A DNA stretch of 64,000 bases from Candidatus Sungiibacteriota bacterium (lineage in GTDB: Bacteria > Patescibacteriota > Minisyncoccia > Sungbacterales > HO2-52-23). The position numbers were made by a program, and so were the translations under genes. The DNA lies in NCBI GenBank assembly GCA_016432465.1, contig CP066690.1, positions 590,823 through 654,822 of the forward strand, written 5' to 3'. Shown piece after piece: positions 5,898-54,373 of this stretch. The notes under the pieces are model-generated. The model did no database searches. It saw only the letters and a list, made by a program, of their open reading frames with translations, and was not told where the DNA came from. Position 1 is the stretch's first letter. The number at the start of each line of letters is the position of its first letter.

Positions 5898-7205
5898 ATG
5901 CCCAAAACAAAACTGGTTCTAAAAGAATTAATAGCCAACCTTGATAGCGTTCCGCAGTATGAACAGTTTCTGGAAAAGTTGCGCAAGTCTCTCCGGTCCT
6001 TGGCTGAATTTTACGGATTTGAGCCCATGGCCACTGCCCCGTTTGAGGATGTGCGGGTTTTTTATCCTCTGATGAAGGCCGGTTTTTTTGAGGAACGTAT
6101 CCCGGTAATTTGTAAAATGCGTACCGGATCGGAGGTTTTACTGCGCCCCTCCGGGGCGTTGGGCGCTGTCCGCGCCTATACCACCCATAAACTATCAGAA
6201 CTACCCAGTCCTTTAAAAGTTAGTTTTTCCGGTGATAGTTTTTTTCAAGCACAGAAGCGTGACGAAAAAATAACCAGTTTAAAGGAGTGCGGATTAGTTA
6301 TGATTGGCGAGGAGGGACCCGTAGCCGAGGCCGAAATAATACAAGTAATTTGGAAATCTTTGGGGGGTATAGGTATGGACATGAAAAATCTTCAGGTCCG
6401 GCTTAATGCCACGGGTTGTCAGATCTGCCGGCCCTATTTCCGCTCTGCCTTTGGGACATACTTTCGGAGCCGGGCCCAGCGTCTTTGTAAAAACTGTAAG
6501 CGTTTTTTCAAAAGAACGCCAACCAAAATTCTTGTTTGTGAAGACGAGAAATGCAAAATAGTTTCGCGCAGCGCTCCGCCGGTACTTGATTTTCTGTGTG
6601 CTTTGTGCAAAAAACACCTGAAGGGGCTTCTGGAGTTCTTGGATGAAGTTAGTGTTCCATATTTCCTTGACCCCAAGTTATTTAGGGAGGGATCGTGGTT
6701 TAACTCTTTTATTTTTGAGGTGGTGGCGGTTAAAGACCTGAACGAATTAAATAAAAACGGAGGTGATGCGGGGTGGGTGTTGGCTGAAGGGGGGCTGCTG
6801 TCGCGTGCAGCCGAAGCACTTTCTGGTAAAAAACTTGATGTCGCAGCAGGAGTCATTAGTCTTGAGGCTGTTTACGGGTTACTTTCTGCCGAATCCGGTC
6901 TGGTTGGCATAGAAAAGCCAAAAGTTTTTCTTGCGCACTTGGGAGAGCTTGCTAAACGACGGGGTCTGTTTCTGCTTGAGGGATTGCGGGCCGGAGGTAT
7001 TGAGGTTCGCGAGTCGCTGGGACGAGACGCCATAAAATCACAACTGAAAGTTGCTGAACGTCTGGAGGCAGAGATTGCTTTAATTCTTGGACAAAAGGAA
7101 GCTTTAGACAACACTATTATTGTGCGTGAGGTTGCTTCTGGGGCCCAGGAGACAATCCCACAAGAGAAACTTGTAGAGTTTTTGAAAAAGAAGTTAAAGA
7201 AGTGA
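5898..7205 (+). CDS. hisS: histidyl-tRNA synthetase-like class II aaRS with a 4xCxxC zinc-ribbon insertion
   Basis: LRPSGALGAVRAY (HisRS LRPEGTA-like), C-terminal anticodon-binding domain-like; catalytic motif 2/3 arginines look degenerate. Confidence 0.55.
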   Translation: MPKTKLVLKELIANLDSVPQYEQFLEKLRKSLRSLAEFYGFEPMATAPFEDVRVFYPLMKAGFFEERIPVICKMRTGSEVLLRPSGALGAVRAYTTHKLSELPSPLKVSFSGDSFFQAQKRDEKITSLKECGLVMIGEEGPVAEAEIIQVIWKSLGGIGMDMKNLQVRLNATGCQICRPYFRSAFGTYFRSRAQRLCKNCKRFFKRTPTKILVCEDEKCKIVSRSAPPVLDFLCALCKKHLKGLLEFLDEVSVPYFLDPKLFREGSWFNSFIFEVVAVKDLNELNKNGGDAGWVLAEGGLLSRAAEALSGKKLDVAAGVISLEAVYGLLSAESGLVGIEKPKVFLAHLGELAKRRGLFLLEGLRAGGIEVRESLGRDAIKSQLKVAERLEAEIALILGQKEALDNTIIVREVASGAQETIPQEKLVEFLKKKLKK

Positions 7206-12258: not shown

Positions 12259-12278
12259 GAGCCTCTTACGTAGGTTTC

Positions 12279-12304
12279 AACGGCTTTGGCTAGGCCGTTT
12301 TTTG
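12279..12304 (+). terminator. rho-independent terminator after ftsZ
   Basis: AACGGC...GCCGTT stem + TTTTTT. Confidence 0.5.
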
Positions 12305-12345
12305 TTTCCTTTGTCAATATTTTATTATTTATCCACAGAAAAATT

Positions 12346-16950: not shown

Positions 16951-17003
16951 CCGTTCGGCATCAGCCGGCGGTTTTTAAATTATTGTCCGGAACCCCAACC
17001 CCT

Positions 17004-17059
17004 AAAATTTTATCTTAACACTTTTTGACGATCGTCAAAAAGTGTTAAGATAAAATTTT
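17004..17059. repeat. 56-bp perfect palindrome centred on GACGATCGTC
   Basis: AAAATTTTATCTTAACACTTTTTGACGATCGTCAAAAAGTGTTAAGATAAAATTTT is its own reverse complement. Confidence 0.9.
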
Positions 17060-17095
17060 GGTTGAAAGATCTGCCCAATTTGTTAAGGTGCCACC

Positions 17096-51083: not shown

Positions 51084-51872
51084 ATGTGGTATAGCAACGC
51101 AGAACAGTTTAAGGGTTTAAACGGATACGTAATAAACGGTGTTTGGTATCCGCGTGTAACCAAAATTTTAGACGTTAAAGCCAAACCCGCCTTGGATAAT
51201 TTCTTGCGTGAGATGGAAAACTACGCCTCCGCCGAGGATGTTAAGAACAGATCTGCTGCCGAGGGGTCGTTGGTGCATGATATCATTGAGAAACTGATGG
51301 TGGGCAGTATAGTAGAGGTGCCTCCTGAAATAAAGCCGGCTGTAGAGACATTTCAGCGCTTTAACGAAGAAAGAAAGATTGTTTTCCAACCGGATTTTGT
51401 GGAACGTCAAATTTTATCATTGCAACATCGTTATGCGGGTACGGTGGACGCCTTGGCCCTTGTTGACGGTAAGTTTGGTGTTTTGGACATAAAAACCTCC
51501 ACGGGGTTTTATCCGGAGTACAATCTTCAGACCGCCGCTTACGTCTCGGCGCTTCAAGAGTTTGAAGTAAAGCGAAATTTCATGCTGCCTCGCGATATTG
51601 AGACACGCTGGATTTTAAGAATTAACCAGCACCGTATTTGCAACAGATGCGGCGCAACACTCCGTGAAAAAGGGGGCAGGAGCAAGGTACGGAATGGCAA
51701 AAACAGAAGCGGTTCCTGTCCAGACGAAAATCACGAGTGGGGATCCATGGTGGGAGATGTGGAGCTTCGGGAATTCCCTTATTTTTATAAGGACATTAAG
51801 GCTTTTATGGCGGCCAAAATTCTCTGGGAGTGGGAAAATGATTATTGGCTTAGACAAATTAAGTATATATAA
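51084..51872 (+). CDS. PD-(D/E)xK nuclease (YqaJ/Cas4-like) with C-terminal Cys cluster
   Basis: GTVDALALVDGKFGVLDIKTS (D...D-x-K), QTAAYVSAL, CNRC...C. Confidence 0.5.
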   Translation: MWYSNAEQFKGLNGYVINGVWYPRVTKILDVKAKPALDNFLREMENYASAEDVKNRSAAEGSLVHDIIEKLMVGSIVEVPPEIKPAVETFQRFNEERKIVFQPDFVERQILSLQHRYAGTVDALALVDGKFGVLDIKTSTGFYPEYNLQTAAYVSALQEFEVKRNFMLPRDIETRWILRINQHRICNRCGATLREKGGRSKVRNGKNRSGSCPDENHEWGSMVGDVELREFPYFYKDIKAFMAAKILWEWENDYWLRQIKYI

Positions 51873-51876
51873 GTCA

Positions 51877-52311
51877 ATGGAAAAATTTATCGTTTATACT
51901 GATGGGGGAGCGAGGGGAAATCCGGGGCCAGCCGCTATTGGCGCAGTTATTAAGGATTCTTCCGGCCGGACGCTCAAGAGTTACGGCGAGGCGATTGGAA
52001 AAGCAACTAATAACGAGGCCGAGTACCGGGCGGTTATTTTTGCTCTGCAAAAAATAAAGGCCCTTATTGGTAAAGAGGGCACCAAAAAACTCACGGTTGA
52101 AGTAAATATGGATAGTGAGCTGGTGGCGCGCCAACTGGGCGGCGAATACAAGATAGAGGAGGAACGACTTTTTCCGCACTTCATCAAGGTATGGAATCTT
52201 AAAATTGATTTTGGGAAAATCATTTTTCGTCATGTTCCTCGGGAGAAAAATAAAGAAGCGGACCGATTGGTAAATGAAGCTCTAGACAGGCGACAGAGGC
52301 CACTTTTATAG
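51877..52311 (+). CDS. rnhA: ribonuclease HI
   Basis: YTDGGARGNPGPAAIG, NNEAEYRA. Confidence 0.85.
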   Translation: MEKFIVYTDGGARGNPGPAAIGAVIKDSSGRTLKSYGEAIGKATNNEAEYRAVIFALQKIKALIGKEGTKKLTVEVNMDSELVARQLGGEYKIEEERLFPHFIKVWNLKIDFGKIIFRHVPREKNKEADRLVNEALDRRQRPLL

Positions 52312-52324
52312 CAAAACCCACTCA

Positions 52325-52362
52325 TTGTTAACACATTATTCGATCAAACAGTATGTTAACAA
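52325..52362. promoter_or_regulatory. TTGTTAACA-N17-TGTTAACAA palindromic site abutting the 52363 start codon
   Basis: second, perfect copy of the same site at 52983-53017. Confidence 0.5.
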
Positions 52363-52977
52363 ATGCCCAAAACAGATATGACGTTAAAACCGAACTTTAC
52401 TGAAAAAATACTGGAATTTCTGCAAGAACGGGCGGAAATTTCTGTAGACATGCTTAAAGCGATGTTTTTATCACCGCGTGAACTCTCGCGGGATACCAGA
52501 CGGTTTTTGACTTATGGACCCCGGCCCTTTAAAACGAGCTGGGCTGAACAGTATCGTAAACACAGAGTTTATGCAGCTACTCTGAGCAGGCTTAAACGAC
52601 AAGGTTTAGTGACAAAGAAGAGGCAAAATGGCAGCAGCATGTGGCGTATCACAAAGAAAGGGAGTACTAGGCTAGAAAAGATTAAAAAGAGACACAAAAA
52701 TCCACTCTCACTTACCACGGCCCATTTTAAACCGGCCCGTGAACGTTGTTGGGTGATTATAACTTATGATATTCCCGAAAAAGAGAAGGCAAAACGAGGG
52801 TGGCTACGGGGTTGCTTAAAATCGCTTCAATTCTCTTTTCTCCAGAAAAGTGTGTGGATAGGAAACAGAATGATCCCAGAAGATTTTATCAAGGCCCTCA
52901 AAGAGCGCAACATACTTTCCGGCGTGCATATTTTTCTAATAAAGAAGGGCGGCACGATTGAACAGCTTCCTTCATAG
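52363..52977 (+). CDS. winged-helix DNA-binding protein with C-terminal Cas2/VapD-like beta-alpha-beta segment (possibly PaaX-like)
   Basis: N-terminal wHTH-like; C-terminal VIITYDIPEKEKAKRGWLRGCLKSLQFSFLQKSVWIG resembles Cas2 N-terminal YDV..KRR..L..yG.RvQ.SVF. Confidence 0.4.
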   Translation: MPKTDMTLKPNFTEKILEFLQERAEISVDMLKAMFLSPRELSRDTRRFLTYGPRPFKTSWAEQYRKHRVYAATLSRLKRQGLVTKKRQNGSSMWRITKKGSTRLEKIKKRHKNPLSLTTAHFKPARERCWVIITYDIPEKEKAKRGWLRGCLKSLQFSFLQKSVWIGNRMIPEDFIKALKERNILSGVHIFLIKKGGTIEQLPS

Positions 52978-52982
52978 ATATT

Positions 52983-53017
52983 GTTAACACTACGTTCGAT
53001 CGAACGTAGTGTTAACA
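52983..53017. repeat. 35-bp perfect palindrome TGTTAACACTACGTTCGATCGAACGTAGTGTTAACA
   Basis: read directly. Confidence 0.9.
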
Positions 53018-53059
53018 TGGGGCTGGACAAAAGATAATAGGGTTTGCTATAATACTATT

Positions 53060-53564
53060 GGTTCTTTCCACTGGGTGATCGCGCCGCTTAATATATTGAG
53101 TGGTGAGGAAAGTCCGAGCACCATCCCGCTTTCAGTGGGATAGAGATAGCGGCTAACAGCCGCCATGACCGGGAAACCAAGCACTCAACTTTCAGAGTTG
53201 AGTGCTCGGCCGAGCACTAAAATTTCATTTTAGTGCTTTGGGTGTCACAGAAACCATACCGCCGATCGTCACCATCTTTGGTCTAAAGCCAAAGGCGATG
53301 AAGGAGGCAAGGGTGAAAAGAGTGAGGTAAAAGCTCACAGCGCGCGTTGGCAACAATGCGCGGTGAAAAACTCCTATCCGGTGCAAGAGGATACCGTATT
53401 GTACGGTAACACTCGCTTGACCCCAAGAGTAATCAAGGGGCTAGATAGATGATCACCGCTTGCGCAATCCCCGACGACTAATTACTAATTTCCAATTTTG
53501 GGAGTTCTAAGTTAGAAATTGGCAGTTGCGTTAGCAACAGAACTCGGCTTATAGGTGGAAGGAA
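53060..53564 (+). ncRNA. rnpB: RNase P RNA (bacterial type A) with expansion segments
   Basis: GAGGAAAGTCCGAGCACC, AAGGGTGAAAAGAGTGAGGTAAAAGCTCACAG, CACAGAAACCA, AACAGAACTCGGCTTATAGG; P1 GGTTCTTTCCAC/GTGGAAGGAAC. Confidence 0.8.
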
Positions 53565-53607
53565 CAAAACAAAATAACTCGCACTGCGAGTTATTTTGTT
53601 TTGTTCC
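53559..53607 (+). terminator. perfect 20-bp-arm hairpin terminator after rnpB
   Basis: GGAACAAAACAAAATAACTCGCActgCGAGTTATTTTGTTTTGTTCC. Confidence 0.7.
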
Positions 53608-53622
53608 TTAGTAGACTAATTA

Positions 53623-53844
53623 TTATAGTAGTGAAATATCAATTTTTTTCCCGCCCCTTTTATTTTTTGAATTTTCAATCCTCCGCAAAAAAAGTTCTAT
53701 CTGATCAAGCCGATAGACGCGGTAGTTATTTATCGGATGACGGTATGCGCTAAGATTACCTTTTTTGTCCCAGTTGCGAAGTGTCAAGGGGGTAACCCCT
53801 AAAATTTGGGCTGCTTCTTGTATTGTAAGGTATTTTCGCTCCAT
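53623..53844 (-). CDS. excisionase/MerR-type HTH (HTH_17-like) small DNA-binding protein
   Basis: LTIQEAAQILGVTPLTLRNWDKKGNL. Confidence 0.6.
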   Translation of the reverse strand: MERKYLTIQEAAQILGVTPLTLRNWDKKGNLSAYRHPINNYRVYRLDQIELFLRRIENSKNKRGGKKIDISLL

Positions 53845-53852
53845 TTAATACT

Positions 53853-53900
53853 TTACTAAACCTTAATAACTTAGGCGCCTAAGTTATTAAGGTTTAGTAG
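53853..53900. promoter_or_regulatory. 48-bp perfect palindrome (centre GGCGCC) in divergent promoter region
   Basis: TACTAAACCTTAATAACTTAGGCGCCTAAGTTATTAAGGTTTAGTA. Confidence 0.7.
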
Positions 53901-54060
53901 CTAAGAGTAATCTTTTTTCTGTGCTTTTTTCTCTCTTTCATTTTCGTTCCCAACGAGGTTGGGGTCAATGTGGGTTATCCACAGCATGTTTAAGTAAATA
54001 CTCACAAGTACTGAACCGTAATGGTTTGCCCTTGATGGCAAAACGCGCTATCATACGAGA

Positions 54061-54309
54061 ATGAATACCATTACTATTCCCACAAAGAAAATTAAAAAAG
54101 AAGGGGGGATTGTGGTCCTTTCCTTGGAGGAGTATAGAAAGCTGTCCGAACGAGCAGTGCCGACCTATTATTTAAAAGGGAAAGCAGCTAAGAAGTTTGA
54201 CAGGATGGTGGAGGCGGGACTTAAGGAGTATAGGGAAGGCAAGACAATTAGCGCCCGATCTCTTGGTGAGGCCATGAAAATCTATGCCAAGAAAAATAAG
54301 AGGAGTTAA
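54061..54309 (+). CDS. Phd/YefM-like antitoxin-type small protein (orphan)
   Basis: ITIPTKKIKKEGGIVVLSLEEYRKL. Confidence 0.45.
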   Translation: MNTITIPTKKIKKEGGIVVLSLEEYRKLSERAVPTYYLKGKAAKKFDRMVEAGLKEYREGKTISARSLGEAMKIYAKKNKRS

Positions 54310-54373
54310 ATACTCTTTGAAAAGATGATTCCCCTGCACACCAAGGTTAAACCTTATTGTTACTATTAAATTC

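Follow-up and report, generated by a model that had tools for sequence, protein, structure and literature searches.

The closest described relative of the system reported here is PaaX, a dimeric repressor that responds to phenylacetyl-CoA and in which a winged helix is followed by a Cas2-like central domain (PDB 8a39, 3l09). The E. coli protein is autoregulated. It represses its own promoter and binds TGATTC-N27-GAATCA, a widely spaced inverted repeat of 39 bp (PMC9493321), and a widely spaced symmetric site of 36-40 bp is therefore an already known use of this architecture. The other relatives are Cas2 and VapD; in the latter an Asp and a Ser form the catalytic pair (PMC11980593). Here, we analyze a gene whose product lies between these groups. 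It is located in a 64-kb piece of the chromosome of a Candidatus Sungiibacteriota bacterium (Patescibacteria, also termed Candidate Phyla Radiation, CPR), which we call the window, at positions 52363..52977 of the forward strand. The gene encodes a protein of 204 amino acids (aa) with a winged helix-turn-helix (wHTH) and a Cas2-like (PaaX_M) domain, and it is bracketed by two 36-bp palindromes. We propose, with a probability of roughly 0.55, that a dimer of this protein binds both palindromes, represses its own gene from the upstream copy and uses the downstream copy as a second cognate site. For comparison we used genome loci that are labeled L003 to L141.

The 204-aa protein is a "mini-PaaX", in which a MarR/PadR-like winged helix is joined to a Cas2-like domain and the C-terminal ligand domain of PaaX is missing. 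In Pfam the PaaX_M domain (PF20803, "PaaX central Cas2-like domain") is recognised at residues 128-198 with an E-value of 1.9e-12 and 47.5 bits against a cutoff of 24. All homologs listed carry PF20803 as well, and Pfam knows just this domain. The CRISPR_Cas2 model (PF09827) reaches 6.2e-5 and 23.5 bits, slightly under its cutoff of 23.8, the NCBIfam Cas2 model TIGR01573 gives 19.1 bits against 24.5, the PADLOC Cas2 model matches weakly (3e-4) and the PaaX equivalog TIGR02277 scores 24.1 bits against a cutoff of 264. The N-terminal half has weak PadR and HTH_45 matches in Pfam, finds MarR/PadR proteins in a profile search against the PDB and aligns with the wHTH domain of E. coli PaaX in hhalign (E 0.0034). 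An AlphaFold2 (AF2) model that was built with 41 homologs has a predicted local distance difference test score (pLDDT) of 89 and contains a winged helix with helices at 38-51 and 60-79 and a wing at 83-96. A Foldseek search of this model against the PDB places PaaX (8a39) and Rv0674 (3kfw) on top, followed by many Cas2 chains with target-normalised template modeling (TM) scores of about 0.5 and probabilities of 0.8-0.9. The Foldseek E-values are weak because the model comprises two domains. No PaaX_C domain was matched by Pfam, and the Cas2-like domain is the last one of the chain. With an alternative start at 52378 the protein would have 199 aa, as in gene call P0001. A first-pass annotation of this DNA had already proposed an N-terminal winged helix and a Cas2-like C-terminus for this protein, and both assignments hold.

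The protein keeps the hallmark motifs of Cas2 (FDIPE...KRxWLR...QKSVW). D136, R145 and S163 are found in 100% of 261 family members, the fusion with the winged helix is fixed (261/261) and the winged helix is far more variable than the Cas2-like domain. With Cas2 and VapD the family shares the invariant Asp that closes beta1 and the QxSV(F/W) Ser, which match the VapD catalytic pair, as well as the dimer-forming C-terminal strand. In contrast, E. coli PaaX has lost these motifs (SEG...APSLM, with a Glu at the Asp position and no QxSVW). PaaX has 316 aa with the PaaX_C ligand domain and is associated with paa genes, whereas none of these was found near the window gene or in the annotated loci of the family. 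There are also differences to Cas2 and VapD. The family is always fused to a winged helix and scores slightly under the Cas2 family cutoffs, and compared to VapD toxin-antitoxin systems it forms a single-gene cassette without a conserved neighbor. No HUH/Y1 transposase was matched in the protein by Pfam, and neither a His-x-His motif nor a Tyr is found among the invariant columns.

The upstream palindrome (52326..52361) reads TGTTAACAC-ATTAT-TCGATCAA-ACAGTA-TGTTAACA and is imperfect, with 14 of 18 positions paired; it is the proposed operator. The downstream palindrome (52982..53017, TGTTAACACTACGTTCGATCGAACGTAGTGTTAACA) begins 5 nt past the stop codon and ends 6 nt ahead of the -35 element of the rnpB promoter. 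It is perfect, as the first-pass annotation had it, over 36 bp rather than the 35 bp given there. Both copies carry the centre TCGATCGA and, at positions +-11-16 from the dyad, the outer box TGTTAA (equivalent to TGTTAACA), and at these elements the two match. Exact matches to TGTTAACA-N20-TGTTAACA in the whole window are confined to these two palindromes; with up to three mismatches 3 matches are found against 0.34 expected from shuffles, the third being an overlapping match with two mismatches. The palindromes thus bracket the gene, as had been noticed before, and they belong with it. In size the 36-bp site is comparable to the PaaX operator of about 39 bp. It differs from this operator in that the family sites are palindromic over their full length, have a conserved centre and occur on both sides of the gene.

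The association between gene and palindromes is a property of the family. Among 97 loci in which the gene has 220 nt or more of flanking sequence on each side, long palindromes (30-50 bp) were found on both sides in 43, upstream only in 16, downstream only in 11 and, at the threshold used, on neither side in 27. The background is 0.07 palindromes per 260-nt window and hence about 0.5 two-sided loci would be expected. A downstream cognate copy is present in 54 of the 97 loci (43 plus 11), whatever the orientation of the next gene, and the position and architecture of the upstream palindrome recur in L121, L124, L132 and about 60 other loci. The closest homologs on long contigs (L121-L125 with 52-53% and L132 with 51% identity) have the same architecture and homologous sites, for example TGTACAC...TTCGATCGAA...GTGTACA. 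The family consensus is TTnACATTTTTnACGA followed by TCGTnAAAAATGTnAA. The centre is almost always ACGATCGT, with CGATCG in 90 of about 140 gene-adjacent palindromes scored and chiefly the one-step variants CGACCG, CGGTCG, CTATCG and CTATAG in the remainder. The arms are genome-specific and differ freely between genomes. The median arm identity is 0.83 for the pair of copies around one gene, compared to 0.34 between loci. Two paralogs in one metagenome-assembled genome (L025/L066) have different arms, and the pair L034/L071 has the same core. Resolved by position, the identity between upstream and downstream copies is 0.91-1.0 at +-1-4, 0.73-0.85 in the A/T-rich linker at +-5-10, 0.92-0.97 at +-11-16 and falls to background from about +-20. 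Thus, a bipartite profile with a conserved centre and a conserved box emerges. Mismatches between the arms have no G.U-type strand bias (28 vs 39 upstream, 27 vs 29 downstream); this favors DNA over an RNA hairpin as the form that is recognised. The palindromes are probably the cognate sites of the protein.

The upstream site coincides with promoter-like elements. In the window a candidate sigma-70-type promoter, TTAACA-18-TATGTT (52328..52357, forward strand), lies inside the upstream palindrome; it was judged by consensus match only (9 of 12 positions). Across the family, -10-like hexamers are found 59 times on the gene side of the upstream palindrome, compared to 15, 21 and 25 times in three control directions, which is a 3-4-fold enrichment. 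Among 11 inspected loci of the short class or with variant centres, seven (L003, L007, L060, L105, L044, L084 and L106) have a -10 hexamer at a distance of 6-7 nt ahead of the start codon, in several cases preceded by TG. Such a spacing would suit leaderless mRNAs. The first six of the seven loci have the dyad 34-36 nt upstream of the start codon, and in L106 it is much further upstream. In the window the ATG codons at 52363 and 52378 lie 19.5 nt and 34.5 nt from the dyad, compared to 18.5 nt in L132. Two other functions of the palindromes were considered and rejected. They are not intrinsic terminators, because the T-rich arm lies on the 5' side and the A-rich arm on the 3' side, opposite to the order in a terminator, and as a general rule the downstream copy is not the operator of the next gene, since it is found with 26 co-directional and 22 convergent next genes and there is no enrichment of -10 hexamers.

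We suggest that a mini-PaaX dimer, joined via its Cas2-like domain, would bind the two 36-bp palindromes around its gene. In Cas1-Cas2 complexes, Cas2 dimers are placed along the DNA duplex. Recognition of the palindromes would be bipartite. The nearly invariant Cas2-like core would read the conserved centre ACGATCGT (TCGATCGA in the window), the more variable winged helices would read the genome-specific 6-bp box at +-11-16 (here TGTTAA), and the A/T-rich linker would not be read base by base. The contrast of a variable winged helix and a conserved Cas2-like domain parallels that of variable boxes and a conserved centre. Since the upstream site overlaps the promoter of the gene, binding there would repress transcription of the gene itself, a negative autoregulation as in PaaX. 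At the 3' boundary the downstream palindrome may be another cognate site, which co-operates with the first one by looping or as a transcriptional roadblock. Together the two sites might isolate a regulator gene expressed at low level from its neighbors. Gene and sites form a self-contained accessory cassette in the variable slot between the RNase H gene and rnpB, and the adjacency to rnpB is incidental because this slot is part of an otherwise conserved housekeeping neighborhood. The first-pass annotation had offered an autoregulated module as one of its readings, and the data are consistent with it.

Several observations do not fit easily with this model and have to be weighed against it. The invariance of the VapD/Cas2 catalytic Asp and Ser exceeds what a pure dimerisation scaffold would need. 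Ordinary autoregulation leaves the downstream copy unexplained, as it has no promoter-like signal and is equally frequent with co-directional (26) and convergent (22) next genes. Helical phasing between the two sites was sought and none was found. The co-variation of the boxes with the protein does not separate the domains (partial Mantel r 0.087 for the winged helix vs 0.068 for the Cas2-like domain). Between upstream and downstream copies we counted 52 compensatory double changes that preserve symmetry, compared to about 5 expected, and 72 one-sided changes; each palindrome therefore keeps its self-complementarity on its own. Binding of a dimer alone does not predict such changes unless template-switch correction is invoked. 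The correction of quasi-palindromes by template switching is an established mutational mechanism that preserves symmetry without selection, and the upkeep of symmetry could come from this process or from a hairpin requirement. Finally, L139, a related Sungbacteria genome without the cassette at the RNase H-rnpB site, has solitary ACGATCGT-centred palindromes at 7013-7056 and 12266-12311 (1013-1056 and 6266-6311 in L128) that are not in promoter positions. Their arms are different, and there is one at each convergent 3'-3' junction, of which only two exist in 17 kb.

Palindromes apart from a family gene are rare in general. Outside the cassette the remaining 63 kb of the window contain one, and about 706 kb of flanking locus sequence contain eight palindromes with this centre, most of which could be traced to mis-called gene starts or nearby paralogs. 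The dispersed copies found in the window and the scanned loci are the one in the window, the two in L139 and one in L051. In L051 the same cognate palindrome occurs at 463-508 and 6057-6106 around a 1619-aa gene directly downstream of the Cas2-like gene, and hence palindrome pairs can enclose other genes. The solitary palindrome of the window (17002..17061) is near-perfect over 60 bp, with the centre GACGATCGTC and the outer arms TCTTAACAC, and 34 nt separate its end from the comEC start (17096) downstream of it. Each of its arms is spaced 1 nt wider than in the cassette palindromes, to which it is related, and it is a possible third site for the 204-aa protein. There is no other family gene in the window and none within 35 kb of this palindrome. 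A role of comEC as a conserved regulon member was not supported, as five of five relatives from a metagenome scan had no upstream CGATCG palindrome. CGATCG itself is neither over- nor under-represented (9 observed vs 11.4 expected). The seemingly solitary copies in L046 and L049 flank divergent paralogs that were missed by the DNA pattern used to find family genes (L046, oriented, 6139-6706; L049 605-1184). The beta1 motifs of these paralogs are YDISEKK (L046, which also has a hydrophobic N-terminal stretch) and LLDLP (L049), and they also carry palindromes with CGAxCG or CTATCG centres; L049 contains two tandem family genes with a common boundary palindrome. A number of contigs end in or just past a cassette palindrome (L005, L034, L037, L075, L132 and others; L132 stops 31 nt after the stop codon). 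Long perfect palindromes probably cause such ends during assembly, and a rearrangement at the level of populations is a less probable cause.

The catalytic residues and the scattered palindromes could also be read as signs of a selfish or mobile cassette bounded by palindromes. The winged helix would then target an active Cas2-fold nuclease to the palindromes as element ends, and the solitary palindromes would be solo ends, footprints or landing sites. We regard this, the main rival, as unlikely, with a good deal to be said for it. The cassette behaves as an insertion or deletion against a background of conserved synteny: the window has it between RNase H and rnpB and L132 after RNase H, and L127, L128, L140 and L141 lack it. 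Homologs of equal similarity (51-53% identity) are found in another context together with homologous palindromes, as after a relocation of cassette and sites; those of L121-L125 sit among glycosyltransferases and a peptidase S66 gene. Palindromes at both ends irrespective of neighbor orientation, solitary copies at convergent junctions (L139) and around another gene (L051), a hairpin-type constraint as implied by the symmetry-preserving changes, and the Asp and Ser invariant in 261 members all point in the same direction. So do the asymmetric centres CGACCG and CGGTCG, which are common to the upstream and downstream copies in the same orientation in L012, L033, L055 and L114 and in the opposite orientation in L035, L070 and L088; this suggests sequence exchange between the copies in both alignments. 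Against mobility stand the lack of identical multi-copy cassettes and the stable synteny within sublineages, where 15 locus pairs are colinear on both flanks and a clean cassette inversion between conserved flanks was found neither there nor among 13 one-flank cases. Neither a transposase nor a recombinase can be recognised by its chemistry (no HUH/Tyr, no DDE), a target-site duplication could not be defined, solitary copies are few, most of them being explained otherwise, and the family DNA pattern has zero matches in 2.9 million viral contigs, a result that also led us to reject a phage origin. The GC-rich centre should moreover be unfavorable for cruciform extrusion. A more specific version, which we consider more doubtful still, takes the cassette as an autonomous DNA element whose targeted Cas2-fold nuclease recognises the ACGATCGT centre and may cut or recombine there, thereby relocating the gene and leaving solitary palindromes behind; such an element would perhaps also move neighbors such as the 1619-aa gene of L051. 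Known elements offer partial parallels. As in the system of repetitive extragenic palindromes (REP) and REP-associated tyrosine transposases (RAYT), a single-copy gene sits between cognate palindromes of genome- or paralog-specific sequence, the few additional solitary copies are extragenic and include convergent junctions, and stems keep pairing by compensatory change. In contrast to REP/RAYT, the family protein is not HUH/Y1, solitary palindromes are very few, the palindromes are perfect, loop-less sites of duplex type with a conserved centre and box, and there is no evidence for transposition. In the insertion sequences (IS) IS1, IS10 and IS911 the terminal inverted repeats overlap the transposase promoter. 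The predicted sites of the 204-aa protein likewise lie at both gene ends, with the upstream one overlapping the promoter, so that binding would autoregulate; the family differs from IS elements in that it has no recognised transposase fold, no target-site duplications and no multi-copy state.

The remaining explanations are less probable. The palindromes might act at the RNA level, as 5' and 3' mRNA hairpins that the Cas2-like domain binds or cleaves in order to control mRNA stability. RNase activities have been reported for Cas2 and VapD (PMC11980593), self-complementarity is kept by compensatory changes, and one transcript may cover both RNase H and the gene in the window and L132, in which case the upstream palindrome would be part of it. 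The absent G.U-type bias on the sense strand, the terminator-reversed composition of the arms and the strictly conserved 6-bp box and centre, a pattern of duplex recognition, make this improbable; furthermore, if the six loci with the dyad 34-36 nt upstream and the -10 at 6-7 nt are leaderless, their upstream palindrome is not transcribed. An even smaller chance is given to the proposal of the first-pass annotation that the whole stretch from 51 to 54.3 kb is the remnant of an element integrated at rnpB, a decayed island. It is true that the interval between RNase H and rnpB is variable (it holds the cassette here and a Ser hydrolase gene in L140, and in L128 it is 180 nt longer), that an orphan antitoxin is nearby and that an HTH gene scores as excisionase-type. 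However, the gene order is conserved in L127, L128, L140 and L141, the nuclease is a core gene, the MerR-type HTH gene is conserved beside rnpB, and neither an integrase nor att repeats nor a compositional break was found; the conserved order refutes the remnant. The least credible alternative is a degenerate CRISPR adaptation module in which a true Cas2 and two repeats were left over. The weak matches to Cas2 models (23.5 bits in Pfam, 3e-4 in PADLOC), the name "CRISPR-associated endonuclease Cas2" that NCBI gives to some members, the CRISPR-repeat length of the palindromes and a weakly Cas4-like nuclease nearby speak for it. On the other hand, there is no cas1 or array here and no shared partner among the neighbors of the family, the winged-helix fusion is fixed in 261 of 261 members, the "spacer" is the gene itself and the nuclease is an independent core gene. 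The NCBI naming is probably misleading.

The family to which the gene belongs is large. In a library clustered at 50% identity it comprises 842 representatives at E≤1e-30 and 2529 at E≤1e-10. Genome loci were found by a degenerate DNA pattern for FDIPE..R.W..QKSVW, and all of the at least 120 loci recovered are from Patescibacteria. An all-versus-all BLAST of 203 neighbor proteins from 120 loci yielded 158 clusters, the largest with 7 members, and the eight largest clusters inspected are housekeeping genes. With the neighbors scattered to this extent there is no partner gene, and the idea of a conserved partner was rejected. In particular, neither cas1, a CRISPR array nor a VapX, VapW or VapY antitoxin was seen beside family genes among the neighbors of the 120 loci. 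A linkage of the family to rnpB was likewise rejected, as a crude P4-motif scan flagged 2 of 120 loci and neither was adjacent or confirmed by Rfam. In the literature we found no open-access paper that deals with PaaX together with Cas2, nor any that describes this family.

What is new is thus a family of PaaX-type regulators with an unexplained two-site cassette. Patescibacteria have tiny genomes with few characterised regulators, and a large family with a predicted DNA site, found so far in this group only, is now defined. Family and predicted site are directly testable with one protein and one 36-bp oligonucleotide. Because it combines the full catalytic signature of Cas2 with a PaaX-type fusion and a PaaX-sized operator, the family stands between Cas2 and PaaX and may be a natural intermediate for how a nuclease or toxin fold became the core of a transcription factor. 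The constant second site at the 3' end, whatever the neighbors, may point to a boundary or insulator device that compact genomes build from a protein, or else to a mobile cassette of a new type. If the cassette were an autonomous element after all, it would be a Cas2-domain counterpart of REP/RAYT, and a Cas2-like protein would act on palindromic DNA repeats of CRISPR-repeat size outside CRISPR, which bears on the first meeting of Cas2 and palindromic repeats.

The surroundings of the cassette are ordinary conserved chromosome, and the accessory units here are just the cassette and the orphan antitoxin gene. In L127, L128 and L141 the gene order is GalT-TIM-Pyr_redox(-)-PGK-nuclease-RNase H-rnpB-MerR-HTH(-); L140 has the same order up to RNase H, in L129 it is rearranged, and the window keeps it minus PGK. 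All features listed in the first-pass annotation exist, with small corrections of coordinates and lengths, and its failure lies in the reading as an island, since the comparison with relatives that it had itself named as the refuting case revealed this conserved order around rnpB. The PD-(D/E)xK nuclease (51084..51872, forward strand) has the Cys cluster described for it (CxxC...C..H), matches a PHROG exonuclease with 2.5e-25, PDDEXK_1 of Pfam below the cutoff (0.0023) and Cas4 of PADLOC with 7e-5, and reaches no Pfam family at threshold. It is identical to HYW89_03545 and has 1753 homologs at E≤1e-10, the best 120 of the 1753 being 64-76% identical. It is a core gene of the lineage and among its best-conserved proteins. 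The RNase H gene follows at 51871..52311 on the forward strand (RVT_3 5.9e-19, RNase_H 1.8e-10), as had been annotated. The two genes adjoin in the same order in L127, L128, L140 and L141, and every Sungbacteria locus examined has the pair; in L132 a small GIY-YIG open reading frame lies between them. In L141 rnpB begins 21 nt after RNase H, and in L127 and L128 it lies within the same interval, whereas the sequence of L132 ends after the cassette gene and before any rnpB. A compositional island was not detected by GC content. In the region of 50-56 kb neither an integrase nor a CRISPR array was found, and there are no direct att-like repeats; the absence of integrase and array had been noted before.

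The second accessory unit is a gene for an 82-aa antitoxin-like protein (54061..54309, forward strand). It had been called an orphan Phd/YefM-like antitoxin. The context of the homologs speaks for an orphan antitoxin, and Pfam, NCBIfam and PHROG have no match. The homologs are 70-83% identical and occur in varied contexts. In L130 (366-861) and L131 (6001-6496) a 90-aa gene with weak similarity to ParE (E 0.014) comes next and overlaps the gene of the 82-aa homolog. This partner is missing from the window, and the context suggests an orphan antitoxin that has lost its toxin. No gene is called in the matching interval of L127, L128 and L141.

The RNase P RNA gene rnpB is located at 53063..53567 on the forward strand (Rfam RF00010, 150 bits) behind a strong promoter-like motif, TGGACA-18-TGcTATAAT (53024..53053, forward strand). 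With 505 nt compared to the 367 positions of the model the RNA must contain large insertions. In relatives rnpB is found at 5314-5729 of L127, inverted relative to its neighbors, and at 5554-6076 of L128. The hairpin at its end (53559..53609) had been described as 49 bp long and comprises 51 nt (25+1+25), a stem of 25 bp with an A-rich 5' flank and arm and a T-rich 3' arm. By its composition it is a predicted bidirectional intrinsic terminator common to rnpB and the convergent HTH gene. Relatives have different long perfect palindromes of the A-stem-T type at the rnpB end (L127 5278-5313, L128 6070-6117). The HTH gene on the opposite strand (53623..53844) is of the MerR/excisionase type that had been proposed for it (MerR 8e-11, excisionase TIGR01764 9.5e-7, PADLOC "mad1" 1e-10), and its MerR-type counterpart is conserved beside rnpB in L127, L128 and L141. 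The palindrome in its divergent promoter (53854..53899, 10 nt upstream of the gene start) is indeed perfect, with a length of 46 bp in place of the 48 bp given earlier. It is probably the operator of the HTH gene itself, as its outer arms TACTAAACCTTA recur in L128 at 6930-6975. The terminator hairpin at 53559-53609 contains the half-site AATAACT as well, with a similar offset, which may be a coincidence. Further long (36-54 bp), near-perfect intergenic palindromes with the centres GCTCGAGC, TCTTGAGA and others are located in L124 (7846-7881 and 3772-3807), in L134 (322-375) and at 634-675 of the window, and CPR regulators may in general make use of very long symmetric sites.

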